Shown here piece after piece: positions 1 to 59,845 of a stretch of 64,000 bases of DNA. A program made the translations under genes and the position numbers. Under the pieces are notes generated by a model. That model saw nothing but the letters and a program-made list of their open reading frames with translations, was not told where the DNA came from and ran no database searches. How positions within the stretch are numbered: position 1 is the first letter of the stretch; each line of letters starts with the position of its first letter. The DNA comes from a virus. Lineage: Duplodnaviria > Caudoviricetes. The stretch spans positions 36,005-100,004 of the IMG/VR virus record IMGVR_UViG_3300021431_000093; one strand, 5' to 3'.

Positions 1-1055
1 GTTGAATCAGCTTGAGTCATTTCATAATGACCATTTGATAACTGAGGTGAATACACTTTTTCTATTTTACCTTCAGTATCAATTCTTGTTAAATAATCAC
101 TGTTTCCTAAATCTCTATTATATTTATAAAATAAAGATCAGTTCTGATTGTTTGCTATTGAAAAATCAGTTACAACATTTGCTGATGGATAACCTATATC
201 TATATTGTATGTACATAATTGATTCAATGAACTTGATGCTCTTTGAACTTTTTGAACTTTAAAATAAGGTCCTCCATATTGATTTTGTACATCTTCATAT
301 GTCATTAAAGAATATACATTCTGTTTAATTGCTGAACTATTAGTACTTCCTGTAGGATTCATATATGAAACAAGGAAAGCAATATATTCAAGTACTGACA
401 TATTAGTACAAGTTGGAATCTTAACTATTTTATCATCACTTGCTATAAAGTTACTCATTTCAATCAGTGATCTATCTCTCATTCCTTTGAATACATCAGT
501 AAGATGATATTTTGAATTCCAAAGTACTTGTTTTATCTTATCACTTGGTTTAGCAGTTACTGATGGAAATGTATAAGTTCCACTTAATGACAAGGATGAA
601 GTAGATACAGCTTCAATAGTATATGTAATTGATGAACCTGTTATATCAAAACTATTTGATATTTTTGTTATAATTGCCTCTTCATCCCTATATACATAAT
701 TAGGTAACATTGCATCACCATAAGTGAATGTAATTCTAAAAGTATCAGATACTGAACTGAAAATTTTCTCAAAGAAATTTGGATCATTATCCTCGTTTAT
801 TTGATATTTAATAGTTAATCAATATTGATTAACTGTACCATTTATCTTTTTTACTTTTAAACTTTGAACGTAATTAGGATACTTCGCTGCCAATTCAGTT
901 ACAACACCATTTCTTTGATCAGCTTTAATTCCTTTACGCTCAAATACACCAAAAGAATAGTTCCCTATTTGTACACGAACAAAAGGAGCTTCTACCCTAT
1001 TAGTTGAAGCCAATAATGATCCTACTCTATTTGATTCTCGTGTAATTTCTGCCAT
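1..1055 (-). CDS. Putative baseplate hub/tail protein, partial (runs off window edge; code 4)
   Basis: ORFs 819..1055 and 138..710 are in one frame, separated only by TGA; the frame stays open to position 1; follows the LysM/gp53-like gene in the tail operon. Confidence 0.55.
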
Positions 1056-1056
1056 A

Positions 1057-1374
1057 TTATAAATACCTTATTCCTGATAATGATGGAATATTTAAAAAAT
1101 TATAATTTTCATATAAATTAATATATGGATCTTGAATTCTATTAAAATCTGCTATGACTCAAAATAAATCTGGTCTACCATAATACTTTAATGCTAAAGA
1201 ATCCAATGTATCTGTATCTTTAATCATATGTATAACATACTCTGTATTTGTATTTAAATTACCTGTTATACCATAAATATACTTTTTATCAACGGTGTGA
1301 TAATAAAAAGGAAACGTAGCATAACGTGATGTATAATCATAAAATTTCTTTGATTTATTTACAAGTACGTCCAT
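1057..1374 (-). CDS. LysM/T4 gp53-like baseplate wedge protein (105 aa, code 4)
   Basis: DTLDSLALKYYGRPDLF-W(TGA)-VIADFNRIQDP matches the LysM/gp53 YG...W.IA..N pattern; ends at TAA 1057. Confidence 0.8.
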
Positions 1375-2123
1375 TACTCAACTCCTGTGTGAGGTGGTAC
1401 TCACTTCTTGGTGGTTGTAGATGTTCTAGCATTCTTCTTAGGACCAAATGATACAGTCTTCTTAACAGTTTCAGTCTTACTTGTTCCAGCAGTAGATTTT
1501 GTATCCTTAACAATACTTACTGTTGGTGAATTATCAGTATCTTTATAAATACCATTTTTAAATGTTCTTGTTAATCCTCTAAATGATCCTGCCTCTACAA
1601 CATAATCAGCATCATAAGGTTCAACTTCAGATACATTAAATGTAACATCTATTACAGCATATTTACCACCAACTAATATTGGCTTCTTATATGTTACAAC
1701 AACAGCTGAATTTACAACACCTTTAATAAATATATCATTTTCAAATCTTATTGCAATCATAGGAGGTATTACAGTTTTTGCTCCAGATGAATATTCATTA
1801 TATTTAGGTAATGCCATTGCTTGTAAGTACTTAATTAAAGTATCAATGTAATCATCACCTGTAAAATCCACTACGTTATCTTTAAGGTTACTTACGTTCC
1901 TGTTTATATCATTTAATAAATCTCTATGAAATTCAAAATTTACAGAAACTTGTCTTGGTCCTGAATTTTGATATGAAAATACAGGAGCAGTTCTTGCTAA
2001 AGCATTAGTTGATGAGAAATTAGCTGCCATTGAATCAGATATAGATTCAGGACAATCAGGTAAAACACAGAATTTCTGCAAATGATAAAAGTAAATATAA
2101 TTATTTATTTGATTTCAAATCAT
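1374..2123 (-). CDS. Tail tube initiator-like baseplate protein (249 aa, code 4)
   Basis: ATG at 2123 and TAA at 1374, both in TAATG overlaps; PESISDS...R.AP...Y.NSGPR.V pattern typical of tube-like baseplate proteins. Confidence 0.6.
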
Positions 2124-3316
2124 TATAATAACCTCATCAATGTTTCAACATCCCTATCAACATAATCAAGTACATCTTGATATATATCAATAAATCTTTT
2201 AACAGGTTTATCTTCTTCAACAGTTGACTCAGATAAATCAGTTTTTATAATAGTGTTACCATATTTTAAATTATTACCTTTTGTGATATCAGGTATTAAT
2301 AATAAACTATGAATTTTATTCTGTAATTGATTATCTCAAATACCATAGTAACCTTTTATATCACCACCATAAACTGCATCTTGGATTCTTCCTACATTCT
2401 TCTGGAATTTATCCATAGGTGTAATAGCATTTTCAAGTAAATATTCTACCAGCCTATCAGCAAAAGGATAACTATTTTCAAGATTAGCATTTAATAATGA
2501 ACATTTACTGTCATATATAACTAAATCATTTTTAGCAGAATCATCATATATGAAGTTACTTATTTGAGTGCCATCTATAACATTTGTTCAAGATGTATAA
2601 TTACCTTCAAGAATAACTATTGAAGATTTAACTTCTGAAGGAATTTTCAATAACATTACAAGATTCTTTTCTTTTTGCCAGCAATCTTTAGCACAACTAA
2701 AATTGGTTGAATATAAGAATGGTTTACTGAATTTAGAACCACTAATAACTCTATATGATTCTTTAACTAAACTTGAAGGAATTCCTTCAACAAATATATT
2801 ACTATATAATAATGTAACTAATTCTCATTTGATATCTGAATCAATTGCGATAGTATAATTTTGATTAAATCTAATTGGTACTACATAATAATTAAAGTTA
2901 GTATTGTCAGTATCAATTTCAAATGTAAAACTATCACTTAACTTTTGAGTATAATAAATTCTTGATGGTCTTTTCTTACCAAAGCAATTATACATACTCA
3001 TTAAATCAACATGATGATAATCTCTTATAAACCTAAGGTAATCACCTAAATATTCATGAGTGTAGTTATCATAAATAGCTGAATTCATATTTAATCTTTT
3101 TGTTACATTTACTAATTGAGTATTATAAATATAATCAGCAAGAAATTTAAACTCAGATCCTGTTCATTTAACTATCTCATTGTCTTTTATATAAGCTCTA
3201 TTTTCATATAGTACTGTATTATCAGTATATACAGGAATCATTGGTAAATTAAAACTATGTAATAATTCCTTTATATGACCAATTACAATATTATTATCTT
3301 CAAAATTATATTTCAT
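2123..3316 (-). CDS. Hypothetical tail/baseplate protein (397 aa, code 4)
   Basis: Continuous frame once four TGA are read through; TAATG overlaps at both ends; lies just downstream of the tape measure. Confidence 0.6.
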
Positions 3317-5160: not shown

Positions 5161-5378
5161 TAGCTTATCCTCTTCTTATTCTCTTCCAATAATTCCTTGG
5201 CACGATTAGCATCATCAACAATAAATTCTATTAGATAATCCCTTTCCCTAGGAGTTATCTTCAGTATATCAGTATAAGGTGTATTACAATTTTTAGATAT
5301 TGAATAACATTCCCTTACAATTTCTTTGAATCTATGTGGACCATATGGTTCACCATCATCATTAAATTGTGGGTCCAA
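5160..5378 (-). CDS. gp51-like hub assembly/tail chaperone segment, possibly made by frameshift
   Basis: YTDILKITPRERDYLI resembles T4-like gp51; TTG start lies inside a T6 run at the end of the upstream gene, with no clear RBS. Confidence 0.55.
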   Translation of the reverse strand: MDPQFNDDGEPYGPHRFKEIVRECYSISKNCNTPYTDILKITPRERDYLIEFIVDDANRAKELLEENKKRIS

Positions 5379-6105
5379 AAAATTCGCTAGTGTAACGAAA
5401 GGGAGTATCTACTTCACCTCCACACTTAGTGCATTTTAAATGTAAATTAGTATCAATTCCAATTGAAGAATTTAATTTAGTAGCAACCTGTGAAATAATA
5501 TTTGTATCTTTCATAGGTAATTTTTTAAGTGTTTCTTTAATCATAATAGGATCAATAGGTTCACCATCAACTGAATCAATTAAAGATTGTAATGTAAGTA
5601 AAATTGTAGGATCACCAGTCATATCAGGAAAATCCTCTCTCATTTTTTTAGCTTCTCTATTTATCCTGTCTAAATCTCTAGTAGTTTGAAATCTTAACTT
5701 TACTTCATTACCTGTAACAGGTAATTTAACTGTCATTAATTCCTTAATACTGTCATCATATTTATTTATTTTCATATCATCAAGATCAACAGTTATAATT
5801 TCAGAGTTACCACAATAAGGACATGTAAATCTTAAATTATAATCTGCGCCATATGTTACAACTCTTAATTTATGAAGTAAATAAGTATAATCACCTAAAC
5901 ATAAATCATATACAGGAATAGGAAATTTTTCATCTAAACATGATTCAATAATTTCTGACATTGCCTTGTAAGGATTATTTGAAGGTGCCAATCTTTTCAT
6001 TTCATCTTCAACAGTCATTGACCTTAAAGTAAATGATGGATCAAATTTCTTTCCGTAAATTCTACCTTTGCTAGGTAATTCAAAATCCTCTTTAATTGCT
6101 ACCAT
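5362..6105 (-). CDS. T4 gp26-like baseplate hub assembly/tail chaperone
   Basis: LPSKG..Y, LRSMTVEDE, two CxxC pairs, C-terminal FF. Confidence 0.75.
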   Translation of the reverse strand: MVAIKEDFELPSKGRIYGKKFDPSFTLRSMTVEDEMKRLAPSNNPYKAMSEIIESCLDEKFPIPVYDLCLGDYTYLLHKLRVVTYGADYNLRFTCPYCGNSEIITVDLDDMKINKYDDSIKELMTVKLPVTGNEVKLRFQTTRDLDRINREAKKMREDFPDMTGDPTILLTLQSLIDSVDGEPIDPIMIKETLKKLPMKDTNIISQVATKLNSSIGIDTNLHLKCTKCGGEVDTPFRYTSEFFGPTI

Positions 6106-6106
6106 A

Positions 6107-6340
6107 TTATCTTCCTCTCTGTCTTAATGCACGTAAAGTTTTACCTTCATCGTTTAAAATATAAATATTGATACCATTAGCCTCTATGGTTTCAAAATCA
6201 TCTTCTTTCTTACGATTTTTACGGTAAATATTACAAAAGCTGATACCATTATCATAAACACCTGTATCGACTTTATCAATTCCATCAATATAGGTTGTTT
6301 TAATAATATTATCAGCTAAAAAATCTTTCTGTATTATCAT
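6107..6340 (-). CDS. Hypothetical protein (77 aa)
   Basis: ATG at 6340 preceded by GAAAGGAAG. Confidence 0.55.
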   Translation of the reverse strand: MIIQKDFLADNIIKTTYIDGIDKVDTGVYDNGISFCNIYRKNRKKEDDFETIEANGINIYILNDEGKTLRALRQRGR

Positions 6341-6403
6341 ATCTTTGTCTTCCTTTCTGTCTATTTCTATATTATAACAACACAAAGTTATTATAATATA
6401 GAA

Positions 6404-6424
6404 ATAATCAACCGAAGTTGATTA
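6404..6424 (-). terminator. Hairpin terminator after tail tube gene
   Basis: TAATCAAC-loop-GTTGATTA inverted repeat followed by T-rich bases on the minus strand. Confidence 0.45.
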
Positions 6425-6434
6425 TTGTCTTTCT

Positions 6435-7013
6435 TTAAAGTTGATCTGGTTTATGTGGAATGGCGCGATCGAACACAATTGTTCCGGTAAGTGTTTTCTT
6501 ATCAGCATTGTTGTTATCCCATCCAGATTCCTGAATTTGACTTACCCAACAACCTTTAAGTTCCCAATAATTAACTAAAGTATTATCAGGTAAATATTCA
6601 AGTACAACTGCATCTTTCTTATAAACATCAGATGATGGAATAGTATCATCAACAACATTGTAAGATAATGCTTGTCAAGCTCTTAATACTGATTTACCAT
6701 CAGCACCTGCAAAGTCATTAATAACTAATGAACCAGTGCCAAAACTTGCCTTACCAGCAAAATGAACTGTACTATTACCACGGTTAACATCTATAACATT
6801 CTGTTGGAAATCTGGTACTGAGAAACTTACAACGGAGAAATCAATTACTTCCTGACCATTTGTAATATAGTCATCTCTATCATTTGCATCACCAGCAACT
6901 CTTAATAAACTATCCAAGCCTGAAACCAAGAACCTAAAGTTATTTGTTCTTATTGGTTGATAAGACTTAGGATTATCTGCAAGGTGGTATGTTCCAAAAT
7001 TTGTAGTAGCCAT
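6435..7013 (-). CDS. Tail tube protein, gp19-like (192 aa, code 4)
   Basis: VLRA-W(TGA)-QALSYN...YKKDAVVLEYLPD...YWELKGCW matches gp19 motifs; directly after the sheath. Confidence 0.9.
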
Positions 7014-7029
7014 CTATATCATTCCTCCA

Positions 7030-8346
7030 TTAAACTGTAACATCTTTAATCGTTACTTCTTCATCAGTCAATATAATATTAATATCGAATGATTCAACTG
7101 CTTCGATTGGTTGAATTGTTAAGGTAGCCTTGATAGTTGCTTTTTTATCAGCTACTTCTTTTGTCCATTTATACCAAGAGATACCTCTACCACTCTTCAT
7201 TCTATCTAATAAAGAGTTTGCTAAAGTCTTGAAATTAATCCAGACTATATCATCATTAGGTTCAAATGTACATCTCATTGCTGTATGATAAATCTGTTTC
7301 TTAATATCACAAAGTAACATTCTGACATTTAAGAAATTCATATATCTATCAGCTAAAACTGAATTTGTCTTATTAACAACTCTATTACCCCAAATTCTAT
7401 AACCGTATGTACCAGCATTATAAATTGGGTTAATCATGATATTTAATTGCTGACCTGCTTCTTCATCACCTTGTAAAGTATGCATTAATGCTTCACCAAC
7501 ATCAAATGAAGGTTTAACTAAACCAGGGATATAACCTCTAACTGTACCAGCTGCAGCAAACCAGTTTGCATTACTCTTAACACTTTCTGCATATGCCATT
7601 AAGTAACCAAAACTTGCAGGCATTAATACTGTACTTTGAGTATTATTAGCAGTTGTTGTAAAGTTGAACCATGGGAAGAAAGCTGCTGAGTATAAATCTC
7701 CTGCTCCATCAGGTGTGTATTGTTCCTGAATCATATCAAATAATTCAGTCTCATTTTCAACAAAATCTTTAAATTCAATTAAAGCAATTGCATCACCTCT
7801 AGCTTCAGCTAACTCTCTGATTGCAGTGTAGGATGTTGTTGTTTTTGATATAACTTCATCATCTACAGTAACTTCATAAGTCTTACCGCAGTTAGCATAT
7901 CCACCAGTTGTGATAAATTTAATATTAAATAAGTTCCTATTTTTGAACTCGTCTAAATCTCCATTATTAATGCATCCTTCAACCAAATTATATGCTTCAT
8001 CTTCAGATAAGTCATTACCTACTGTAGCATTTTCATATAATAAAGGTTTGACGACCACATTTAATCCTTGTAATAAGAGTTCATACGCCATAATGTACGA
8101 TTTATCTAAACCACTATCAACCGTGACTGTATGTCCGGATGCTCAACCCCTAAAGGCATTTGCACTGGTGAATAATCTCGAGACGGCTTCAGTATCAGTA
8201 TAGATAACTTCCGTAGCATTGGTATTCTCATCAGTACTGGTTTCATAACTTCTAGCGTACAACATAGGGACTAGGACTGTATTTTCTGTAATATCAAATG
8301 CGGCTAATGAAACAGCTTCCTGTTCGCGAATTTTAATATTAGGCAT
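7030..8346 (-). CDS. Tail sheath protein, gp18-like (438 aa, code 4)
   Basis: WFAAAG..RG, INPI, IWGNR, LNVRML, FEPND..W motifs; one TGA at 8143 joins the N-terminal fragment. Confidence 0.93.
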
Positions 8347-8364
8347 GTTTATCCATTCTCTCCT

Positions 8365-8961
8365 TTAATCTTGTACTTTTATATCCCCACTATATTCAAT
8401 ATTCCAGTTATCCATAAATGGAACACTAAATAAGTAAGCATCATCTATTGTCAATCTAATTGACATTCTTGTAAATTGTCCACTAATTAATCTCTCAGGA
8501 ATATCTGAATTATCAGACACTGTACTTTCAATCATTAAAGTAGAATCATGGACAATATTCGCATTGTTATAAGGTATTTCAATATGTAAATTAGGATAAT
8601 TTATAATATTGAAAATAAAATTTCTTACATATTCATCTGCTTCAGCAAAATATTTACAATATATATCCAACTGATATGATAACCTAATAGGTATACCATT
8701 CAACAATTCTGATTTTTCACAATTAGCAGCTATATGACCACCATCATATGATAGAGGTTTTTTAGTTGTACTTATTATTTCAAAATCATTATCTCTTGAA
8801 ATAGCAATAAGTGGTAATGTTAAAGGTTCATCATTTGATTGATCAGCTCTTAATTGAAATAACCTTGTTGATTCAGATGGCTTTAATATTTTCATATTAG
8901 GATCCTTAACTCATTTTTTAATTTTATCAGTTAAGGCATCATCATAAAATCTAATAGCCAA
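8365..8961 (-). CDS. Tail terminator/sheath stabiliser, gp15-like (198 aa, code 4)
   Basis: TTG start with AAGGAG RBS; LPLIAISR and PIRLSYQLDIY motifs; position upstream of the sheath. Confidence 0.65.
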
Positions 8962-9319
8962 TTAATCACTCCTTATATAATATATCTATATTATTATGGA
9001 CCAAATTAAATATCTTTTCAATTAAAGGATAACCTTTACAAGTTCTATTACCATAGGTTATCATATTTACTAATGAATTTAAATTGTTACCTTTATATCT
9101 TATATTTTTATTTATTGTGATTGTATAATTTGTAGATGATTCTTTTATAATCAAATTCCTAACAGCTAATTTAAATACTTGATATGTATTCACATTAAAT
9201 TCTTTATCTATTTTTTGTACTTCAATGTAATTAAACGTATCAGTAACTTTTTTACCAATATAGTCAACTATATAATCTATAAAATCTTTACTATAAACTT
9301 TGTCTATTGTTAATTTCAT
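8951..9319 (-). CDS. Hypothetical neck-region protein
   Basis: TAATG-coupled start; ends at TAG 8951 in code 4. Confidence 0.55.
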
Positions 9320-10005
9320 TAGATAAGATTATTCTGCTTAATGTAGTCAACTATACCTTGTCGCTGTAATAAACTATCAATCATTTCTCTAGCTTGCTGA
9401 TCATTAAGATTTTGAGCTTGTGATCTATTATTTCTTGTAGAAACACCACTATTCTTTAATGCTTGTTCTATACCAGCAATTGATTTTAATGATTTACCAT
9501 CACCTTCATAGAATATACTTGTTAATTTAGATTCATCAAAACCTTTTTCTATACAATCATTTAATAATCTTAAGACATCCCTAAATTCATCATCACTTCT
9601 AGTGTAAAGGTTTAATCTAGGATTATTCTTAATAACGATATTTTTTCAAAAGTTATTTTTTAAATCATCATTACTTATACTTCCATCAGAATAAGCATTA
9701 TATACTTTTGTAAATGAATCAACTGATTGAAGTGGAGCATCATGATCATTTATCATTCTTAATAAATTCATGAACTCATTATTTACACGACCAAGTTCCA
9801 CTCACTTCATAGCATTAACTCATCTATTTACATAATCAATACCATAATTTAAAATTATTTTTATTGTTTCCCTTGGAATACGAGCACTATCTTCAAGAAA
9901 TTCAGCAAGAACCATTAATCTATCATTTCCATAAGCAGCATTGTAAGCTTCTTCAGCCATTTGTACAGTATTATACTTGGCCTCATTTAATCTTCTTACT
10001 TTCAT
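9319..10005 (-). CDS. Hypothetical putative head-associated protein (228 aa, code 4), MKVRRLNE leader
   Basis: Open through three TGA to a TAATG overlap; GAGGAG RBS. Confidence 0.65.
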
Positions 10006-10508
10006 TTAAAATGCTCCTCATCTTCTTGATTTAATAAATTAAAATCACTATCGACAAATAATTCTGTATCAGCTCTTTCAACATTTGTTTCGTATTCTTG
10101 AACAAGTCTACAAGTAATACTTGCTGGATAAATTGCTATAGCTGACATTTCAACTACTCTGAATTTTCTACCTTGAGTATTATCAAATGCTGATGGTATT
10201 TTAAATAAACAACCAACTTGTAAATTTTCTAAATCATATGGTACACTAATAAGTGATGCTTGATCTTGTAATTCAGAATTTCAACCTAATTTTTTTGCTG
10301 TTTTCTGATCAATATTTTCATTAAATATACAACCAACTCGAAGGGGTTCACTATATGAAGTATCTAGTTCCCCTTGAGTAGTGTACTGTTTATTCTGGAG
10401 TGGATATTGGTATTCACAAAATACACCCCTTAATGTTACCATTTCATTGAAGTATCTTCTTTGAAGTTGAACATTAGGTTGTACTAATCTTCCGTAGTCC
10501 TTCTCCAT
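9996..10508 (-). CDS. Neck/head-closure protein, gp14-like (code 4)
   Basis: KKLG-W(TGA)-NSE...ISVPYDL..LQVGCLF.IP pattern; position between neck adaptor and tail genes. Confidence 0.6.
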
Positions 10509-10516
10509 AATAACTC

Positions 10517-12316
10517 CTATTTTCTTACGGCTCTTCCGTAAACTCTAGTTGCTTCAGACTCATTAGATTCATTAATTGTCTTTGCTGTATAGTTATAAAT
10601 TAAACTTTCAGAAATGAACTTTTTATCAGATAAAGTACCTTTTAATACGAATGCTTTATTTGATTTTGAGAATGTTTCATTCTTTCCTTCAGTTACAACT
10701 TTACCTCTCTTCGTATTCTTAAAACCTTCAAATACGAATGAGGTCTTCTTTTCTTTACCAGAATTGAATTTAATTAATCCTTCAACAACTAACTGACCTT
10801 TATTTAAAGTTACACCTGTTGTCTTAAAAGAATTTACATTTTCATAAACTCTATGAAGATATGATTCACCGATTTCATCAAATGATTCTTCATCGAATTC
10901 ATCAATGTCTAACTCATCTTCAGCTGGTTCTTCTTCAGCAGCTACTTCTTCAGCTGATTGTTCTTCATTATTTTCAATGTCTGTAATTTCTTCAGCATCC
11001 AATGGAGCAATCATTTCATCTTCAGATGCAGCTTCTGGTTCTTCAGGATTACCAACTTCAACAACTACTTTACCATCTTCAGTTTTAACTTCAATATCCT
11101 GTTCATCTGTATGAACTTCAACTTCGTTGAGGTCTTCTTTCAAGTCTTTAACTGGTTCTTCCTTAGGATCAATTAATTTTTCAGCATCTTCAGATTGAAC
11201 TTCTTTCAAATCTTCACCTAAAGATTCTTGAGTAGGAGCATTAGCAAATAATAAATTTAATAATGCTTCAGTATATTCATCCTGTGCTAAATCAGCAGCA
11301 TCAGCTAAATCACCAAATCCTTCTTCATTACACCACTCTGGATCATAATCAGGAATATCTTTAGCGATAGTAAATGCTAAATTATCATTTAAATCGACTA
11401 ACTTATCATTTAAATATTCACTGACTAATTCTCTTACAGCCTGTGCATCTTCAGTAAGTTTAGATTCATTAACAACTAACTTATCAGGAATTTCAGTTGT
11501 AGGATTCTCCATTGGAGTTTCTAAATCATGATCATCTTCAACTGCTCTGTCAGGATCAACTCCAACTTTATCTGGATCTTCAAACTCCTCATGAAGTTCA
11601 TCATCAGCATCAACATTAATAGCTACATCATCACTATCTTCAGGTTGATCAACATGAACATCAATGTCTTCATCAAAATCTCTATCATCTAAACTAAAGA
11701 ATTTATCATTGAAATTCTTTTCAGCTTTTTCAAATCCAGCCTTAGTGTTTGTACCACCGTTGACTTCATTCTCATAAGCAACATCTGATAAAGCATTATA
11801 AACATCACCGTTTAACATTTCCTGATCAACAGATCCATCTTCGAACCTATCTTCATTTAATGCTTCTTTAAGTGCTTCACCAATCTCTTCATCGGAAATA
11901 TCTGGTTCTTCTTCTACTTCAACTTCCTCTTCATCTTTTGGTTCTTCTTTAAAAGCATCAGCATCAAACTTTTCAATCCTACCGATAACATTCCATCCAA
12001 AAGCATTACTACATACTGGACATTCTTCCTCGACATTTGCGAGACCCGAATCCTCATCAATAATTACATCTGCGATGTCCTTGTAAATTCTTGTATGACA
12101 GCTGTCACATTCAAGAATAACTTTACCAATATAATTATCTTGGAGGTCTTCAACTTCGTCAGCCTCAACATCAATAATTTCTTCTTCAGCAGGCGCTTCG
12201 ATGTCATCAGCTACAAAGCTCTGTAATTCATCTATAACACCCTGATCAGCAGTCAAGTTAAAATCGTCTTCGAGTAATTTTAAACTTTGGAAAGCTTCTT
12301 TAAGGTAAAATTCCAT
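10517..12316 (-). CDS. Acidic prohead core/internal head protein with zinc ribbon (599 aa)
   Basis: Very Asp/Glu-rich; CDSC...CPVC; many L-x-E motifs; late promoter motif upstream. Confidence 0.6.
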   Translation of the reverse strand: MEFYLKEAFQSLKLLEDDFNLTADQGVIDELQSFVADDIEAPAEEEIIDVEADEVEDLQDNYIGKVILECDSCHTRIYKDIADVIIDEDSGLANVEEECPVCSNAFGWNVIGRIEKFDADAFKEEPKDEEEVEVEEEPDISDEEIGEALKEALNEDRFEDGSVDQEMLNGDVYNALSDVAYENEVNGGTNTKAGFEKAEKNFNDKFFSLDDRDFDEDIDVHVDQPEDSDDVAINVDADDELHEEFEDPDKVGVDPDRAVEDDHDLETPMENPTTEIPDKLVVNESKLTEDAQAVRELVSEYLNDKLVDLNDNLAFTIAKDIPDYDPEWCNEEGFGDLADAADLAQDEYTEALLNLLFANAPTQESLGEDLKEVQSEDAEKLIDPKEEPVKDLKEDLNEVEVHTDEQDIEVKTEDGKVVVEVGNPEEPEAASEDEMIAPLDAEEITDIENNEEQSAEEVAAEEEPAEDELDIDEFDEESFDEIGESYLHRVYENVNSFKTTGVTLNKGQLVVEGLIKFNSGKEKKTSFVFEGFKNTKRGKVVTEGKNETFSKSNKAFVLKGTLSDKKFISESLIYNYTAKTINESNESEATRVYGRAVRK

Positions 12317-12353
12317 TACTTTTATTCCTCCGTAAAAATTATTTTATTTATAA

Positions 12354-12364
12354 TAAATTTAGCA
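12354..12364 (-). promoter_or_regulatory. Putative late promoter TGCTAAATTTA
   Basis: Repeated intergenic motif upstream of structural genes. Confidence 0.7.
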
Positions 12365-12402
12365 ACTTCTAAATGCTAAATTATGAAACATTTTTCAGAA
12401 AA

Positions 12403-13101
12403 CTAATCAAGAGGTAAAACTAAATCAGTTGCAACTCTTAACTGTTCCCTTAATGTAGTTAATTCACTATTACCCTCTTCAAGTAGTGTTGCTCCATCAT
12501 CTGACCATAACGCATTTGATTGAGTATACCTTGTTCTAATTCTTCCTAAAATTATTTTAGCATAAGCAATAGATAATTTTAATAAAATATCTTGTCAGTA
12601 ATTTGTAACTACTTCAGATGCATCATGTAATTTAGGTACAAACTCTATAACTACTTCAGATGGTTGACCATTGGTGTAATTAACATACAACTTTTTATTT
12701 ATTTCATCATATCTAAAATCCATATCAGTTGATGCTGTATTGGATATTTGTTGAGCAGTGGCATAATTTAAATATCTATATACTCAATCAGTTGTATAAT
12801 AATTAGATGATATATTATACATCTGTAATTGAGAAACATATGCAGGGTCTGATGTAACATTTCCTGTCCCTAATCCTGATATTCTATGCACAGCAATAAC
12901 TGATTCTATTTGTGGATATTCTACTATATCAATACAACTGGATGCTGGTACCTGAATAATGTTGGTAACATTATAATACCTATTCATTTCTTCCATTGCC
13001 ATATTAATGACTTTTTCTATACCTTTATCATCCAATTCACAATCTATAATTCCACCAGTTAATTGGAATTTAATCTTATCTATATAATCCTTAACTTCCA
13101 T
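12403..13101 (-). CDS. Neck/head-tail adaptor, gp13-like (232 aa, code 4)
   Basis: Y-W(TGA)-QDILLKLSIAYAKIILGRIRTRY...DGATLLEEG..EL matches the gp13 C-terminal pattern. Confidence 0.85.
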
Positions 13102-13859
13102 TATTCAATTTCCTCCTCAGGTTCTTCCTCAGGTATCTCTTCAATTTCCTCTTCCTCTTCAGGTTCTTCAAGAGGTACTTCATCCACATCAACAAGCTCA
13201 TCTTCAGGTGGTTCAATTATACCTTGATCAAGTGCTCTTTGATATGATACTCCGTAAATAGCAGGAAATATAACGTTAAAATATTTATCTGGATAATGCT
13301 CTTCCATATATGTAACATAATTAGTAATACAAGATGCCAATTTCAATGCTCAATCAAGATCAGCTAATACTTTCATTACATGTTTACAACCAGCACCTTT
13401 AGAATCATTAGGATTTGTAATTCTAGCAGGAACTATTTGAGGTTGCCCTGAATTATATCTACCTTTACTTGCTCAATATGACATCCTATAAGTAAAATCA
13501 GGACAATTACAACTTACATAAATATCTTGTTTATTAATTGCATCAATTATTGCCCTATAAACTACTTTATATTCAAATGATCATGAATTATTTTGAAGTT
13601 CTCTATTTATAGCATCCAATATACCATCAAAAAGAACCTCTACTTCATAATTTCCGTGTTCACCTTGAATAGGAATTATAAAGGAGAGTAAATTTGCCTT
13701 ATATAGGGCATTCATATCAATTTTATTAAAAGCACTTACAGAATTATAAACATGTTGCAAATCTTTACGTTCATATCTTGTAGTTCCGTAAGACTTTGTA
13801 ATATCTGCACTTCTACTTTTTGATAGTAATTGTGATCTTGTTTTCTCTTCTAACTTCAT
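13101..13859 (-). CDS. SWIM zinc-finger protein with acidic tail (252 aa, code 4)
   Basis: VSCNCPDF...GCKH appears only on TGA read-through. Confidence 0.75.
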
Positions 13860-15964: not shown

Positions 15965-15980
15965 TCTATTTCCTTTCAAA

Positions 15981-18125: not shown

Positions 18126-18149
18126 TTATAACAACCTCCCGGCATATAT

Positions 18150-18160
18150 TAAATTTAGCA
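18150..18160 (-). promoter_or_regulatory. Putative late promoter for the protease-capsid operon
   Basis: TGCTAAATTTA followed by GGAGG RBS. Confidence 0.7.
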
Positions 18161-18181
18161 CTTTACCTTGAAACTTTTTCA

Positions 18182-18637
18182 TTACTTAATCATTTGCAGA
18201 CATTTAACATCTGCCTTTGTTATCTCAAGTAATTTTCTACATGGTTCTAAATTATATGTACTAAAATATATACCTAAACACTTTACAATTTCATCAGCTC
18301 TTGCATGCTTATAAAACAATGCTTTATCTTCTGGTTTATATTGTAATATTTGATTTAATAAAGCAGATAAGGTTGTAACTATCGTTTTAGGATCAGTTAA
18401 TGTATTCTCATCCGACTTCATTATATTAATGTATAATTTACTCTTTTTATTATTATATGATACTCTTAATTTCTCATAGAATTTTAAAATATCTAATGAA
18501 CGGTTATCATTAATTTTCTTAAGTGCTTCAAGAGGTATTGTTGATGATCTTAAAACTAAATTTAATTCATTATTAACATCAATACCTTTATTTTGTAATT
18601 CTGTTAAGAGTAATATTATATCACTTCTTGCTATCAT
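18182..18637 (-). CDS. Hypothetical protein between portal and protease
   Basis: Intact ORF with GAAAGGA RBS. Confidence 0.65.
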   Translation of the reverse strand: MIARSDIILLLTELQNKGIDVNNELNLVLRSSTIPLEALKKINDNRSLDILKFYEKLRVSYNNKKSKLYINIMKSDENTLTDPKTIVTTLSALLNQILQYKPEDKALFYKHARADEIVKCLGIYFSTYNLEPCRKLLEITKADVKCLQMIK

Positions 18638-18669
18638 GTCATTCCTTTCTTGATAAAATCAACTAAAGA

Positions 18670-24715: not shown

Positions 24716-24717
24716 AA

Positions 24718-25350: not shown

Positions 25351-25352
25351 AC

Positions 25353-26651: not shown

Positions 26652-26663
26652 ATAATAATATAT

Positions 26664-26692
26664 AAAAAAAAAGGATTAATTAATAATCCTTT
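26664..26692 (-). terminator. Terminator after the fibre operon
   Basis: AAAGGATTA...TAATCCTTT plus long T run on the minus strand. Confidence 0.6.
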
Positions 26693-51783: not shown

Positions 51784-51813
51784 ACTGATCTTTCCTCCCA
51801 ACTATATTATATA

Positions 51814-51983: not shown

Positions 51984-52006
51984 AAAACCGGATACTGTCC
52001 GGTTTT
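51984..52006. terminator. Terminator ending the early recA-KTSC operon
   Basis: AAAACCGGA-TACTG-TCCGGTTTT. Confidence 0.75.
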
Positions 52007-52211
52007 AGTTTAATCTTTCATATTCAAATTTAGTTTTAATTGATGAATTCATATATCTACCTTTAGAATCAGAATCCATAAGTGATTCATAAATTACTTT
52101 AGGTACATTTTTATACTTATAAATTGCACCTGATTGATATTGGATATAAAGATTTTCATTTTCATATCCTACACTATCGATGTTAGATGATTTTACTTTC
52201 TTTAATTCCAT
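52005..52211 (-). CDS. KTSC-domain protein
   Basis: VKSSNI.SVGY...Y.Y.NVP..Y..L..S.SKG.Y.N..IK. Confidence 0.88.
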   Translation of the reverse strand: MELKKVKSSNIDSVGYENENLYIQYQSGAIYKYKNVPKVIYESLMDSDSKGRYMNSSIKTKFEYERLN

Positions 52212-53251
52212 TATTCAATAATTTCTCCTGTCTCTGGGTTTACATCATAAACGGGATTCAATTCAACACCCATCAATTTATTTTTAACCATTTCAGTAAG
52301 TTCAGCTAATTTATCAGGATTTTCATTATAATACTCTGTAACTTTTTTAAGACCTTGGAATCTCTGACCGTCATGAGTAGTCATCCACGCACCAGCTTTT
52401 TCGATAAATCCATAATCAACTGCCAAATCAATTGCTTCACCTTTAGCAGAGAATCCATCTCCAAAAATCATTGTAGCTTCACATACTTTCATTGGTACTG
52501 CTAACTTATTTTTAACACATTTTACTTTAACATGTGTACCAATAACTTCATCTCCTGATTTAATAGATGTAGTCTTTCTTAACTCAATTCTTTGTGAAGC
52601 GAAGAATTTTAAAGCATTTCCGCCTGTAGTTGTTTCAGGATTTCCCATTGAGAATCCTGTGGAAATCTTCATTCTGATCTGATTAATAAAAATAACTGCA
52701 CAATTGTGTTCATTTAATGAACCAGTTAATTTTCTCATTGCCTTACTCATCATTCTAGCAAGTAAACCAATTGTGACGTCTGACATTTCTCCATCTAATT
52801 CAGCTTGAGGTGTAAGTGCTGCAACTGAGTCAACTATAATAAGATTTACTTCACCTGACTTTACTAATGCATCAACAATCTCAAGTGCCTGTTCACCAGA
52901 TGATGGTTGTGTGAAAATTAAATCATTTGTATTAACACCTAAATGAGCAGCATATGTAGTATCAAGAGCATTTTCTACATCAACATAAGCAACTCTACCG
53001 CCATTTTTCTGACATTCAGCTGCAAACTGTAAACATAAAGTTGTTTTACCTGAAGACTCTGCACCATAAATTTCAGTGATACGACCATATCCAATACCAC
53101 CACCAAGTACTTTATCAATTAATAATGAACCTGATGATAGCATATTATGAGTAATAGGTTCAGTATCACCTAATGTCATAATAGTACCTTTACCATAAGT
53201 TTTATTTAACTTATCTAGTGTGTCCTTAAGACTTTTTGGAAGTTCTGCCAT
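52211..53251 (-). CDS. recA: RecA recombinase
   Basis: GAESSGKTT, IVDSVAAL, FINQIR, GGNALKFFAS, KNK. Confidence 0.97.
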   Translation of the reverse strand: MAELPKSLKDTLDKLNKTYGKGTIMTLGDTEPITHNMLSSGSLLIDKVLGGGIGYGRITEIYGAESSGKTTLCLQFAAECQKNGGRVAYVDVENALDTTYAAHLGVNTNDLIFTQPSSGEQALEIVDALVKSGEVNLIIVDSVAALTPQAELDGEMSDVTIGLLARMMSKAMRKLTGSLNEHNCAVIFINQIRMKISTGFSMGNPETTTGGNALKFFASQRIELRKTTSIKSGDEVIGTHVKVKCVKNKLAVPMKVCEATMIFGDGFSAKGEAIDLAVDYGFIEKAGAWMTTHDGQRFQGLKKVTEYYNENPDKLAELTEMVKNKLMGVELNPVYDVNPETGEIIE

Positions 53252-53585
53252 TATTCTCCTTTACTAATTTATTATATAGATCATAAGATAATTTTATAAT
53301 CTGTTCAGCAAAGCTTTCTGTAAAGTTTGCTACTATTTCTTCAATTTCTGCATTAGTTATTTTAGTTGGTTCAGCATCTGATGTAAAACCATATGACCAC
53401 CTGAATGCATGAGCAACTTCATGAATAATAGTACTTATTGTCTGACTTTTATTCATTCCACTGTTGATAATAATTTGATTCTGTAAATAAGATGTTAAAC
53501 CGCATGTAACTTCATTCAAATCTTCATCTTCAGGATCAATAAAACCTATTACCCAATCATGATTATTTACTTTAAAATGTACCAT
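53226..53585 (-). CDS. HExxH zinc metallopeptidase-like (ImmA/IrrE-type) protein
   Basis: TIIHEVAHA...EEIVAN. Confidence 0.7.
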   Translation of the reverse strand: MVHFKVNNHDWVIGFIDPEDEDLNEVTCGLTSYLQNQIIINSGMNKSQTISTIIHEVAHAFRWSYGFTSDAEPTKITNAEIEEIVANFTESFAEQIIKLSYDLYNKLVKENNGRTSKKS

Positions 53586-53681
53586 TTCCCTCCTGATTTA
53601 CTCCAATTAAGCAGGAGTCATTTTAATTAAATATATAATTACTATATTAAATTTTATAATAATGTCTCAGAATAAGCGGGA

Positions 53682-54032
53682 TTAATCCAGGTAATTTTTA
53701 CCAAATCTTTTAATAAACAAATTAACTCTATCTTCCCATGGTAATTCATGATCAGTATAAGTATTTATCCACACTTTTTCTGCATTCTGTTTTATTTTTA
53801 AATCTAACTCATGATCAAAATGTACACTGAAATTTGACATATTGTGATGACTTCCACATAAAGGAAGTACCATACCGTCCTCTTTTGATTTTGATCTATT
53901 ACCATTTGATCCAAAAAATACTTCATGCAGTGCAACTGCTGAAGTACTTCCGCATAATGCACATCTATCAAGAGATGGAACAAGGATAGAAAATCTATCC
54001 TTGTCCTTTATCTTATCTTTTTTACTAGCCAT
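53682..54032 (-). CDS. HNH-like zinc-finger nuclease (Ref/DUF968-like)
   Basis: CALCG..LHEVFFG...LPLCGSHH...VH. Confidence 0.7.
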   Translation of the reverse strand: MASKKDKIKDKDRFSILVPSLDRCALCGSTSAVALHEVFFGSNGNRSKSKEDGMVLPLCGSHHNMSNFSVHFDHELDLKIKQNAEKVWINTYTDHELPWEDRVNLFIKRFGKNYLD

Positions 54033-54040
54033 GAATACCT

Positions 54041-54412
54041 TTAAAAGGTTGCTTCAATTTCACCGAAGATTGCATCGAAGTCAATTGGATTATCTTCTTC
54101 AGCTCTAGGACAATTTTCACAATCTTCATCTTCACATTCATCACAGTCGAAGTATTCTTCACCGTCTTCGGACTGATATTCAGCTTCCATAGCTTCTTCA
54201 GCTGCCTTCTGTGCAGCTTTAACTTCAGTTACCATTGCTTTGGTATAAGCACAGAGACCATCAATTCCTTCGATGTCAGAATCACCAAGATTGATTGAAA
54301 CGAAGTCTTCATCTTTAATCTTCTTATCAGCAACGAAGTACAGAAGGTCAAGATAATTATCGAAATCAGCAGTTACAGTAGCATTTGAATCTTTAAACTT
54401 AATATTGAACAT
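54041..54412 (-). CDS. Acidic hypothetical protein with Cys cluster
   Basis: GAGGT RBS and own promoter; CDEC...CENC. Confidence 0.7.
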   Translation of the reverse strand: MFNIKFKDSNATVTADFDNYLDLLYFVADKKIKDEDFVSINLGDSDIEGIDGLCAYTKAMVTEVKAAQKAAEEAMEAEYQSEDGEEYFDCDECEDEDCENCPRAEEDNPIDFDAIFGEIEATF

Positions 54413-54438
54413 TTAACTTACCTCTTTTCTATAGTTAT

Positions 54439-54467
54439 ATAATAACAAATTGTAGATTGTATGTAAA
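54439..54467 (-). promoter_or_regulatory. Early sigma70-type promoter
   Basis: TTTACA-17 bp-TATTAT with TGn extension. Confidence 0.75.
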
Positions 54468-54725
54468 CTAAATTTTTTCATTAAGGATAACCTTTTCTTT
54501 TTTATTTAACTTATCTATATCCTTATTGACTCTAATCAGCTTTTTTACAAATAAAACTTTCAATTTCCTTGTAAATTCTTTCAACCATTTAAAAATATCA
54601 AGTCCAAAGAACCATGAAAATTCAACTTTAACTACCCATACAAAGAATATCGCCATTACAATGCATGATTCTAAAAGGACAAGAAGTCCCATTGTTTTCA
54701 TAATAGCTTGTGCTGCTTCTACCAT
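54468..54725 (-). CDS. Small membrane protein
   Basis: Hydrophobic N-terminal helix, basic tail, AGGAGG RBS. Confidence 0.65.
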   Translation of the reverse strand: MVEAAQAIMKTMGLLVLLESCIVMAIFFVWVVKVEFSWFFGLDIFKWLKEFTRKLKVLFVKKLIRVNKDIDKLNKKEKVILNEKI

Positions 54726-54976
54726 GGAAATTTCCTCCTATGCTTCATTCCTATAAAATAATCCGTATCAATATACATTGGGAAAGATGGTTTTTCAAGT
54801 AACCATCTAGTTTTATCTCTGAGAAGTCCTGCTTCAGTATTTTCAAATCTTCTTAATAATATATTATTTTTATTGTGCTTTGGTTTATAATATATTTCAC
54901 ATACATATAAACCAAAACCTGCATTATAAGTTTCATACTTAAGATTTTTGAATCCGTAATATTCAATATTTGTCAT
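54719..54976 (-). CDS. Hypothetical protein
   Basis: GGAGGT RBS before ATG 54976. Confidence 0.6.
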   Translation of the reverse strand: MTNIEYYGFKNLKYETYNAGFGLYVCEIYYKPKHNKNNILLRRFENTEAGLLRDKTRWLLEKPSFPMYIDTDYFIGMKHRRKFPW

Positions 54977-54988
54977 ACGTACCTCCAA

Positions 54989-55471
54989 TTAGAACGACCA
55001 ATCGTAATGGTAGCTTTTTACTCCGAAACTAATTTTTCCACTTAAATCAAAGTATCTCTTGTAATAACCTTTCTCTTTAAGTGATTTCAACTCTTTAGCT
55101 GTGCAGTAGTTTTCCTTTGTATATGTAACTTCCTGCTTCCATTTATTGTATCTATATACCCAAGTTTCAGGCTCAGGTTCTTCCTCATGTTCCCTGTAAG
55201 TATCAGGGAAATATTTTCTTAAGTAGTCATTCATTTCATCAGCTGTTTTAAAATACATCCAATTTTGATGACCCATTCCACCTGGTTTATCGTGATCCGC
55301 ACATACATGATACTGTCTAACTTTGATCCTCTTCTGATTTTCTACATCTACTACATAGTAGCAAGTTCTGTCTGACCAGTAGTACATCGTAATGTCCATG
55401 CCAGGTTTAATTTCAGGAACTGATCTTCCTTCTTCCAATCTATTTATTAAATTTCCATACCACTTACCCAT
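54989..55471 (-). CDS. Hypothetical protein (160 aa; six Trp, all TGG)
   Basis: GGAGGT RBS before ATG 55471. Confidence 0.7.
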   Translation of the reverse strand: MGKWYGNLINRLEEGRSVPEIKPGMDITMYYWSDRTCYYVVDVENQKRIKVRQYHVCADHDKPGGMGHQNWMYFKTADEMNDYLRKYFPDTYREHEEEPEPETWVYRYNKWKQEVTYTKENYCTAKELKSLKEKGYYKRYFDLSGKISFGVKSYHYDWSF

Positions 55472-55472
55472 T

Positions 55473-55841
55473 TTAATACCTCCAATCAACTGATGAAACT
55501 TTATAACAAGGACCATACTTTGTATCTACTTTTTTGACATTGATGTTTGTAATTTCTTTTGAATTTACTGGTTTATACTCCACGAATTCCCAATCACGCC
55601 ATGAATTATCGTCCCTGTTCATAAAGAACTTAATACTGAAATCAAACATATCTTTCTTATTTGTGAATAAGACTGAATTAAATGCTTGATACTGTAAGTC
55701 AGTTACGATGATAGGATTCTTTTCAACTGACCTTGTATTGAATTGAATATAGGAGTAGCATTTCTTTCCATACACCTGTCTAGGTTTTCTGAAAGTGTAT
55801 AAAGTGTTTTTTGTCTCTGCTGTCTTGACTGTGTATTTCAT
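55473..55841 (-). CDS. Hypothetical protein
   Basis: AGGAGGTG RBS. Confidence 0.7.
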   Translation of the reverse strand: MKYTVKTAETKNTLYTFRKPRQVYGKKCYSYIQFNTRSVEKNPIIVTDLQYQAFNSVLFTNKKDMFDFSIKFFMNRDDNSWRDWEFVEYKPVNSKEITNINVKKVDTKYGPCYKVSSVDWRY

Positions 55842-55852
55842 TTTATCACCTC

Positions 55853-56026
55853 CTAATATTCAATGTAAAGTCCACCAGAAACTGTATGATCAGCTGTTCT
55901 TACTTCAGTGTATCTTGAAGTATTTCTGAGAAGTTTATTTACAAACTTATCGAACTGATCTTTATATCCAAATCCCTTATTTTTAAGAATACCGTTATCT
56001 CTATAGCTGACTTCATATCTATACAT
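55853..56026 (-). CDS. Small hypothetical protein (57 aa), absent from the ORF track
   Basis: MYRYEVSYRDNG...LYIEY; GAGGT RBS directly behind an early promoter. Confidence 0.65.
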   Translation of the reverse strand: MYRYEVSYRDNGILKNKGFGYKDQFDKFVNKLLRNTSRYTEVRTADHTVSGGLYIEY

Positions 56027-56079: not shown

Positions 56080-56085
56080 CTAAAT

Positions 56086-56286: not shown

Positions 56287-56304
56287 ATTTATTCTCCTAA
56301 TTAT

Positions 56305-56333: not shown

Positions 56334-56335
56334 CT

Positions 56336-56364
56336 AAAAAAAGGATAGACATATGTCTATCCTT
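56336..56364 (-). terminator. Rho-independent terminator
   Basis: AAGGATAGAC-ATAT-GTCTATCCTT plus T run. Confidence 0.8.
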
Positions 56365-56377
56365 ATGGAAAGGAAGA

Positions 56378-58888: not shown

Positions 58889-58914
58889 ATTTATTAACCT
58901 CTAAATAACATATA

Positions 58915-58925
58915 TAATTTTAGCA
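58915..58925 (-). promoter_or_regulatory. Putative late promoter (variant TGCTAAAATTA)
   Basis: Motif upstream of GAGGT RBS. Confidence 0.65.
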
Positions 58926-58954
58926 GCAAAAATAAAAGGGTAACTTTCATCACC

Positions 58955-59845
58955 CTATTTTTTATTTATTTCATAAGAACATTTATCTATTAAAAAATTT
59001 AAATGTCTGTATTTTTTATATTGAAATGATGTGTTAGTTGTGCATAACTTAACAAGTATATATCTATTTGGTATTATTACATTATATACCTCTTTAATAT
59101 ATCTAGCTATTTCATGCCAGTTTGTTGATTCAATATTATCAATTTTAAATATATACTTACTAAATCCTTTTGACATATTAACTTCTTCACTGTACTTTAA
59201 TCCTGTTTTCACCTCTCTTAATTTATTTATTATTTCATCACTAAATTTTAATCCAGTTTTATGAAGTATTCAATTTTCATCCAGATTTAAAGCATCTTTC
59301 ATATCCATAAATTTTGATTCATTAGTTATAGTATTATAACATGCAACTTTACCAGATTTTGAATTATGTAATTTATCACGTGTTTCTTGTGATACATTAT
59401 GTCCAGTTAATGATTTACTTATATTATTACATCATTCATCAGTTCTTTCAATTTCCTTACAGGATTCTGATATTTTTTGATTTCTTTTATCTTTTTCATC
59501 TTCTGTTAAATTTTTATTCAATTCATTTACATATTCTCAACCGCCATTTCCGCCAGCTAAAATATTATAACCGACGTCAGGGTTCATGCTATCAAGTTTC
59601 TTTATTCAGTAAATTTCTTTTTCATTTAATTCATCAATTGTAGATGCGGTATCCAATTCCTCAGCAATAAAATTTTCTATACCATACTTATAAAATGCAC
59701 TATATAGATGTGAACAACCTCTATTACCTTTCAATCATAATTTATATGATTTTTTATGACTTTGAAATCTTTTTTCTATTGTTGATGTTGTTTTGCCTAC
59801 ATATATTTTGTTATTTACTAAATTAATTATCTTATAAATAAACAT
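58955..59845 (-). mobile_element. Free-standing GIY-YIG homing endonuclease with NUMOD3-like repeats (296 aa, code 4)
   Basis: FIYKIINLVNNKIYVGKT..IEKRF..H, E..WI, GYNI..GG; five TGA. Confidence 0.88.

Follow-up and report, generated by a model that had tools for sequence, protein, structure and literature searches.

The subject of this analysis is a 64,000-nucleotide (nt) stretch of phage DNA, hereafter the window, which comprises bases 36005-100004 of the 100,004-base pair (bp) IMG/VR virus record IMGVR_UViG_3300021431_000093, and in which in-frame TGA codons are almost certainly read as tryptophan (Trp). We consider it very likely that the phage infects a host using the standard genetic code, and that the change in the meaning of UGA is driven by a phage transfer RNA (tRNA) with the anticodon UCA, such that UGA would be decoded as Trp in roughly half of the phage genes.

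Reading TGA as a sense codon transformed the gene structure of the window. On the minus strand, translation table 11 yielded 95 open reading frames (ORFs) of at least 50 amino acids (aa), covering 79.4% of the window with a median length of 116 aa, while treating TGA as sense gave 61 ORFs, 94.9% coverage and a median length of 220 aa; treating TAG as sense gave a coverage of just 80.9%. With TGA as sense, the window contained 109 in-frame TGA and 122 TGG codons in 62 genes, 32 of which carried TGA, and the whole record contained 195 TGA and 207 TGG codons in 106 ORFs and was 96.8% coding. An earlier note on this DNA, which had proposed that TGA is recoded as Trp, pointed to genes repaired by read-through and to clean gene junctions, and our results agree with it on both. 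PHROG matches show that read-through repairs the terminase, sheath, tube and neck (head-tail adaptor) genes that it had named, as well as the portal, capsid and baseplate hub genes; and at 12 junctions neighboring genes share one base as TAATG or TAGTG, while ATGA overlaps do not occur. The base following in-frame TGA (the +4 position) was T in 25% of cases, similar to sense codons, compared to 51-55% after TAA and TAG stops, and a search for a weak-termination context at TGA found no difference in the +4 base relative to TGG or to all codons (p = 0.16 and 0.64, respectively). Given the sense-like +4 base and the absence of ATGA overlaps, TGA in the predicted genes acts like a sense codon rather than a stop, with the caveat that the ORFs were called with TAA/TAG ends by construction, so that the evidence for avoidance of TGA as a terminator is indirect.

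The earlier note had also offered repeated motifs within the phage's own proteins as internal proof of the Trp reading. All six of the TGA sites that it cited were found in frame on the minus strand, at the coordinates that it gave (Table 1), and their pairing with TGG-containing motifs is real. As proof, the argument is weaker than was stated. In an all-against-all comparison of the phage's proteins, only 7 of the 28 TGA sites that had a paralogous partner faced TGG or TGA, and the remaining sites lay in loosely aligned fibre repeats rich in threonine and serine, making the result noisy and weakly supportive. In the long tail fibre, two copies of a W-G-x-I-x-G repeat have TGG (34825 and 34510) and two have TGA (36107-36109 and 34286-34288). 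Taken alone, the comparison of paralogs is suggestive.

The decisive evidence for the reading of TGA comes from alignments to orthologs. Tables 4 and 25 give identical ORFs, and therefore only aligned columns can decide which amino acid is inserted. To compare codons directly, we used 11 related IMG/VR loci that had been found through the portal protein (45-89% identity), with the query TGA masked as X against bias. At query TGA sites, the relatives had TGA 74 times, TGG 33 times, TAT 8 times and a few other codons, with no GGN glycine codon among 133 aligned codons. At query TGG sites they had TGG 98 times, TGA 20 times and TTT 9 times, and, in reverse, the relatives' in-frame TGA codons were mostly opposite TGA, W, F or Y in the query. 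Protein alignments gave a similar picture. Among 120 homologs of a Laminin_G_3 virion protein, W occupied 48% of the cells in the 13 TGA columns compared to a background of 2.4%, G occupied less than 3%, and columns 6, 66, 449, 515 and 711 were almost all W. Among 150 representative terminase homologs, the TGA columns were 84-92% W, Y or F; the closer homologs had W at 72%, while the distant ones had Y at 42%, W at 30%, F at 12% and G in 1 of 437 cells. Two TGA codons of the SNF2 helicase, 100 and 150, align with W residues conserved in both of the chains shown, the Sulfolobus Rad54-like structure 1z63 and INO80, and codons 280 and 500 align with Y/H. The overall Trp frequency is 1.25% when TGA is counted as W, and an abnormally low 0.64% when it is not.

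The W counts among database homologs count less than their number suggests, as they are partly circular: many database gene calls had already assumed code 4, and of the homologs that we checked, one came from a phage called with TGA as W and another from a phage called with TAG as Q. Because of this circularity we used as a check two relatives that do not gain coverage from TGA as sense, L012, which uses the standard code, and L125, which is TAG-recoded. At 12 query TGA columns, these two had TGG 9 times, TAT twice and TTT once; the terminase of L012 had TGG at 4 and TAT at 1 of the query TGA columns, and the Laminin_G_3 protein of L125 had TGG at 5 of 7. Thus the homolog columns are enriched for Trp and other aromatic residues and not for glycine, and the Trp assignment of the earlier note is supported by codon-level relatives, by 270 homologs of two proteins and by solved SNF2 structures.

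Use of TGA is sharply partitioned among the genes of the record. A set of 51 genes (11,100 aa) has 86 TGG and no TGA codons, and includes the DNA polymerase, the DnaB-type helicase, the UvsX-like recombinase, the portal, the protease, and the small genes at 52005-56026 and 60019-63993. The other 55 genes have 195 TGA and 121 TGG codons, with the most extreme TGA:TGG ratios reaching 16:1, 16:1 and 9:1 in single genes and 24:2 in the block at 24035-27633. TGA clusters in genes for the tail, the fibres, glycosyltransferases and the terminase and in those of the lysis region, and is avoided in the early and replication genes and in most of the head genes. As a fraction of Trp codons, TGA amounted to 0.485, compared to A-ending shares of 0.68-0.86 for the lysine, glutamate, glutamine, leucine (TTR) and arginine (AGR) codon pairs. 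Heterogeneity of TGA and TGG use over genes (G = 278) far exceeded that of permuted data (mean 112, maximum 159; none of 5000 permutations reached the observed value), and overdispersion of TGA use was 3.2, compared to 1.2-1.9 for control codon pairs. In total, 52% of the genes contain TGA. In recoded phages of standard-code hosts this proportion is 26-71%, compared to ~90% when the host shares the code (Borges et al., bioRxiv 10.1101/2021.08.26.457843). The partition agrees with the model published there, in which a phage of a standard-code host switches the code in the course of infection.

The extent of recoding also varies between close relatives. The head module is nearly free of TGA in this phage, and relatives L003-L007, whose portals are 56-89% identical, have TGA at the portal Trp columns 100 and 300. 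Three codes occur among the relatives, with virion protein families held in common with the TAG = glutamine (Gln) phage L125 and the standard-code L012.

The only tRNA gene in the 100-kb record encodes tRNA-Met(CAU), and lies 668 bp from the end of the contig; when the window was scanned against Rfam at gathering thresholds, this tRNA was the sole match. Sequences of relatives indicate where a UGA decoder may be located. The nearest relative, G001 (70,349 bp), has approximately 92% nt identity over the last 4 kb of the window, with identities of 45-100% for individual proteins. G001 and the window are collinear, and the first 12.6 kb of G001 extend past the point where this contig stops. In G001/L170, a tRNA array starts with a 96-nt tRNA(UCA) about 8 kb upstream and ends with the shared tRNA-Met, and the array is laid out in the same way in another relative, L169, which has 77-87% nt identity to the end of the window. 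Judging from this synteny, the missing suppressor tRNA is most simply explained by a break in the assembly. A search with PF00472 and PF00579, representing the release factor 1 (RF1) and tryptophanyl- and tyrosyl-tRNA synthetase (TrpRS/TyrRS) families, found no match in G000-G003, all four of which are fragments. In the nearest relative, a NUMOD3 endonuclease gene with 3 TGA codons adjoins the tRNA(UCA) gene, and the early region beyond this contig (L024:6056-9603, plus strand) encodes two xanthine/uracil-family permeases, a nucleoside 2-deoxyribosyltransferase and a DUF1599 nucleotide-modification domain protein.

The tRNA(UCA) of the relatives has an unusual architecture. It was labeled tRNA-SeC (selenocysteine tRNA) by ARAGORN, and scored 40.1 bits (E = 2.6e-5) against the Rfam tRNA-Sec model RF01852, below the gathering score of 47. 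Its acceptor stem has an A1-U72 pair, the pairs G2-C71 to G5-C68, G73 and an encoded CCA end; A1-U72, the G2-G5 pairs and G73 are determinants of bacterial tRNA-Trp (PMC9976931). The D stem of this subgroup is 6 bp. The extra arm, with a stem of 5 bp and a loop of 7 nt, duplicates the Trp CCA anticodon hairpin. To see how widely this arrangement occurs, we searched for a pattern of anticodon arm plus T arm, and recovered 96 viral contigs, on which ARAGORN identified 43 distinct long (91-100 nt) and 15 distinct short (72-80 nt) tRNA(UCA) genes. Of the 43 long tRNAs, 32 have as their "variable arm" a hairpin with the loop N-U-C-C-A-A-N, mostly 7 nt in length; the remaining 11 look like ordinary tRNA-Sec and do not have the CCA hairpin. 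Phage tRNA-Trp(CCA) genes of the same arrays have an anticodon arm identical in sequence to the extra hairpin. Across 29 aligned tRNAs, UCCA in the extra loop was invariant, even though the search pattern did not require it, the extra stem showed compensatory changes in each of its four pairs, and the five-helix structure was 94.9% paired compared to 73.4% in shuffled sequences. Treating TGA as sense added at least 0.1 coverage at 16 of the 27 loci with a CCA-hairpin tRNA, and at none of the 9 loci with a Sec-type tRNA.

In 185,579 bacterial and archaeal genomes, the CCA-hairpin tRNA was found on only five low-G+C (guanine plus cytosine) contigs of gut metagenome-assembled genomes, in bins named Oscillospiraceae, Bacilli, Coriobacteriia, Phoenicibacter and Treponema, and one of these contigs is clearly TGA-recoded. 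Other bacterial and archaeal pattern matches with an ARAGORN tRNA(UCA) were mostly G+C-rich and tRNA-Sec-like, and six loci had no tRNA(UCA) according to ARAGORN. We also looked for a comparable decoy arm among the tRNA(CUA) genes of the fetched loci, where just an ordinary 77-nt tRNA was present, a result that says nothing either way. No suppressor tRNA with two anticodon arms or a decoy arm was described in the literature searched, which did not cover subscription journals. We tentatively suggest, while regarding it as somewhat doubtful, that the extra arm is a putative handle for the host TrpRS. If TrpRS does read the CCA hairpin, the amino acid identity of the suppressor would be set by the decoy anticodon and not by the decoding one.

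From these observations, we can postulate a sequence of events for infection. The early genes would be translated by a standard-code host in its unmodified state. The phage tRNA(UCA), encoded in the array just past the contig break, would be charged with Trp by the host TrpRS, which may recognize the acceptor stem together with the decoy CCA loop while the UCA arm does the decoding. The decoy hairpin could allow charging by TrpRS although the decoding anticodon has lost C34. The tRNA(UCA) would then compete with release factor 2 (RF2), and TGA-bearing late genes would be made in full length only once it had accumulated. The host itself is probably a wall-bearing member of the Bacillota that uses the standard code, because the phage has a lysin with CHAP and SH3 domains, because Listeria-Bacteroides repeat and BspA-type leucine-rich repeat domains occur among its proteins, because the nearest cultured portals (26-31% identity) are those of Streptococcus, Listeria and Bacillus myoviruses, and because the early genes are free of TGA.

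Several points weigh against this explanation. Head genes are late and yet nearly TGA-free, so that "late equals recoded" is no clean rule. The tRNA(UCA), RF1 and TrpRS were not found in the 100-kb record, and the tRNA(UCA) is attributed to this phage from relatives at 77-92% nt identity. Given its linker lengths, that tRNA could also be read with the CCA hairpin as the true anticodon arm and the UCA hairpin as an insertion. When the endolysin was used as a host probe, no relative was found in the 185,579 bacterial and archaeal genomes, and there was no prophage link or link through clustered regularly interspaced short palindromic repeats (CRISPR). Finally, proteomic proof exists for TAG as Gln in phages (PMC9523058), and in the literature searched such validation was reported only for that reassignment and was not found for TGA as Trp in phages.

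A different explanation for the same codons is that the host itself uses table 4, as a Mycoplasma/Spiroplasma-like or other bacterium in which UGA is Trp, and that the phage shares this code with no switch taking place. The failure to find the suppressor tRNA, RF1 and TrpRS in the record would be expected in this case, and the genome, at 30.7% G+C, is AT-rich like those of code-4 bacteria. We nevertheless regard a native table 4 host as improbable, as a code-4 genome of such G+C would favor TGA everywhere, whereas 51 genes of this phage have all of their 86 Trp codons as TGG while other A/G codon pairs are 68-86% A-ending. The 52% of genes with TGA also falls within the range of recoded phages in standard-code hosts and not near the ~90% of phages in alternative-code hosts (Borges et al.). 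In addition, the phage carries a CHAP plus SH3 wall hydrolase, and Mollicutes have no wall; its syntenic relatives encode their own tRNA(UCA), and its protein families include standard-code and TAG-recoded members. Both this alternative and a phage-driven switch take TGA to be Trp. Glycine, as in table 25 and the phages of Absconditabacteria and Gracilibacteria, predicts the same ORF structure as table 4, and code-25 phages are known (Borges et al.), but the absence of GGN codons in relatives, the scarcity of G in the lectin-like protein and terminase columns, where W, Y and F dominate, and the two SNF2-motif TGA codons on conserved Trp leave it with a negligible probability; the column counts by themselves refute this candidate.

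The form of the tRNA raises the further possibility that the UGA reader is charged with serine, or converted to selenocysteine, so that one of these residues is inserted at TGA sites. The ARAGORN label and the score against the tRNA-Sec model are in keeping with this, as are the 6-bp D stem, the long extra arm and G73, the last two being serine identity features (PMC9976931). We find it very improbable all the same: the score falls short of the 47 bits that Rfam sets as its gathering threshold; serine makes up about 4% or less of the TGA columns, where TGA swaps with TGG and aromatic codons, including at invariant Trp sites; and 195 sites cannot each carry a selenocysteine insertion sequence (SECIS) element. 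Moreover, the acceptor stem has Trp determinants, the extra loop reproduces the Trp anticodon loop without variation, and the true tRNA-Sec genes recovered by the same search do not have a CCA loop and are not tied to TGA-recoded loci. It could also be supposed that the TGA codons are real stops, and that the genes are fragments, pseudogenes or cases of occasional programmed read-through, given that table 11 still yields 95 ORFs covering 79% of the window. Such a view has almost nothing to recommend it, as the 195 in-frame TGA codons lie within conserved domains that continue in frame, their sites are kept as TGA or TGG in relatives with a sense-like context, and the essential single-copy terminase, sheath and tube genes would all be broken. 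Domain continuity, conservation and context already contradict this candidate. A standard-code host with a phage-driven switch to UGA as Trp is thus the explanation that we favor.

With regard to the wider context of these genes, the record is linear and without a terminal repeat, and its completeness was 60% according to CheckV; relatives of this phage reach about 165-180 kb. The plus strand has well more C than G, and all plausible genes are on the minus strand, the whole record being coding on one strand. Judged by its PHROG and Pfam matches, the window belongs to a large phage of the myovirus type. Virion and packaging matches include the terminase large subunit, portal, head protease, major head protein, head-tail adaptor, sheath, tube, baseplate hub, long fibres and the Laminin_G_3 virion protein; others are glycosyltransferases, a UvsX-like recombinase, a family A DNA polymerase, a DnaB-type helicase, an SNF2 helicase, the CHAP plus SH3 lysin and a GIY-YIG homing endonuclease. 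A nucleotide search of the INPHARED phages with the head/terminase region found no match. The locations of individual features are given in Table 1.

Table 1. Features of the window and of related loci. Coordinates are window positions unless preceded by a locus name.
Feature	Coordinates	Strand	Evidence or remark
Tightly packed gene run	1..59845	-	94.9% coding with TGA as sense vs 79.4% with table 11 (window)
Tail/neck module, most genes with 1-3 TGA	5362..13859	-	PHROG
Baseplate hub	5362-6105	-	PHROG
Tube	6435-7013	-	PHROG
Sheath	7030-8346	-	PHROG
Head-tail adaptor	12403-13101	-	PHROG
Head module (major head protein, protease/scaffold, portal); 1 TGA, 9 TGG	14570..20568	-	PHROG
Terminase large subunit, 670 aa; TGA codons 39, 153, 165, 180, 487, 670	20578..22590	-	PHROG 2 match spans the TGA sites
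Five small genes, one Glycos_transf_2; 24 TGA, 2 TGG	24035..27633	-	Most heavily recoded block of the window
Laminin_G_3 (ConA-like lectin) virion protein, 802 aa; 13 TGA, 6 TGG	27651..30059	-	Pfam PF13385
Tail fibre, 1816 aa, W-G-x-I-x-G repeats; 10 TGA	31043..36493	-	Motif check
Early/replication-type block; 0 TGA, 19 TGG	52005..56026	-	Codon counts
UvsX/RecA-like recombinase	52211-53251	-	Inside TGA-free block
GIY-YIG homing endonuclease; 5 TGA, 1 TGG	58955..59845	-	Pfam; among TGA-free early genes
Early genes; 0 TGA, 6 TGG	60019..63993	-	Codon counts
tRNA-Met(CAU), sole tRNA of the 100-kb record	63258..63332	-	Contig end 668 bp beyond
tRNA(UCA), 96 nt	L024:4611-4706 (L024 = G001)	+	Beyond the end of the window
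tRNA(UCA), 96 nt	L169:12774-12869	-	Syntenic relative
Motif xGNIQG	TGA 36107-36109 and 34286-34288	-	In-frame motif check
Motif xGKLKG	TGA 23543-23545	-	In-frame motif check
Motif QADxNE	TGA 32606-32608	-	In-frame motif check
Motif HxEFIG	TGA 35501-35503	-	In-frame motif check
Motif AxSHIYRA	TGA 26779-26781	-	In-frame motif check
TGG partner motifs	WGSIEG 34825; WGSING 34510; QADWNE 39935; HWEYIG 32128; AWSKIYRA 36612		

Conservation of TGA differs among these modules. In the small-gene cluster at 24035-27633, TGA positions are kept as TGA in relatives L003, L004 and L013, and in the tail/neck module TGA and TGG swap with relatives at the same columns. The final sense codon of the terminase gene is itself TGA (20581-20583, minus strand), with TAA directly after it, and TGA within the last few codons was also seen elsewhere, for example at 9996-10508, L002:15634-16587 and L002:16591-17100; such near-terminal TGA codons could be tolerable whichever way they are read, as Trp or as a premature stop. 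Many of the terminase homologs are far longer than the query (up to 1,458 aa), and match it in 2-4 stretches that often restart near query residue 207, a pattern that points to inteins or inserted endonucleases recurring at one site. The GIY-YIG gene is an intergenic insertion that is absent from the nearest relative, in which the same junction is about 280 bp, and no group I intron was detected around it in the Rfam scan of the window at gathering thresholds. Two further ORFs appear only with TGA as sense, one of 1566 aa at 47101-51801 (minus strand) with a weak nucleotidyltransferase match, and the 1002-aa CHAP plus SH3 lysin at L001:1929-4937 (minus strand), which has 8 TGA and 15 TGG codons.

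Annotation with table 11 splits the terminase, sheath, tube, fibre and lysin genes of this phage, along with about 30 other genes of the window, and recognition of its code is therefore a precondition for any use of the sequence. The sharp partition between 51 and 55 genes makes the phage a good case for stop-codon recoding as a means of timing late gene expression, and relatives with varied recoding and three codes in the same families provide material for studying the pace at which a change of code takes hold across a genome. The tRNA of the relatives suggests a concrete way in which a standard-code cell could come to read UGA as Trp. If this is true, the code switch of this lineage would be run by a "two-headed" suppressor tRNA that combines a Trp acceptor stem, a UCA decoding arm and a copy of the CCA hairpin.

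The earlier note described this DNA as a strong example of a phenomenon already known from gut phages, and this is right with respect to the phenomenon, as the same pattern is found in Borges et al.; a gut origin is not shown by the sequence, host and habitat being deduced from relatives. TGA-to-Trp recoding has been reported in several clades of large, AT-rich phages of the animal and human gut ("Agate" and "Jade" among others), including cattle samples (Borges et al., bioRxiv 10.1101/2021.08.26.457843, later published in Nature Microbiology). Like those phages, the one studied here is large, AT-rich and of virulent type, has TGA at terminase Trp columns, does not use TGA as a terminator, concentrates TGA in structural and lysis genes while excluding it from the replication machinery, and has standard-code and TAG-recoded relatives within the same families. 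A suppressor tRNA was seen in only part of the published genomes. The "Agate" phages have a preferentially recoded intron endonuclease in an early gene (Borges et al.), and the recoded homing endonuclease found here among early genes is similar, although it is intergenic and not intronic; the resemblance to this clade rests on the published description. Unlike the phages of Borges et al., the present one has a head module that is almost free of TGA. The "Jade" phages carry a code change module with RF1 or TrpRS, of which G000-G003 gave no match, and most of the published recoded phages are also without it.

Outside of this group, the same reassignment of UGA to Trp is made by tRNA-Trp with the anticodon UCA in the Mycoplasmatales, Entomoplasmatales and some endosymbionts (table 4). 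In those bacteria it is permanent and genome-wide, with RF2 lost, whereas half of the genes of this phage avoid TGA and the decoder appears to be phage-borne. The phages of Absconditabacteria and Gracilibacteria have the same in-frame TGA codons and ORF structure, but in them TGA is glycine and ~90% of genes are recoded (Borges et al.), compared to Trp/aromatic columns and 52% of genes here. Among crAss-like and Lak phages that recode TAG to Gln, the codon and the amino acid differ from those described here and the logic is the same, with late genes in a code that the host cannot read and suppressor tRNAs supplied by the phage. The suppressor itself, for which Borges et al. give no account of the architecture, can best be compared to bacterial tRNA-Sec and other class II tRNAs. 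The relatives' tRNA(UCA) shares with these the UCA anticodon, G73, the long extra arm and, in its subgroup, the 6-bp D stem, and differs from tRNA-Sec in its sub-threshold score, its Trp-like acceptor stem, and an extra arm of 5 bp and 7 nt with an invariant UCCA.

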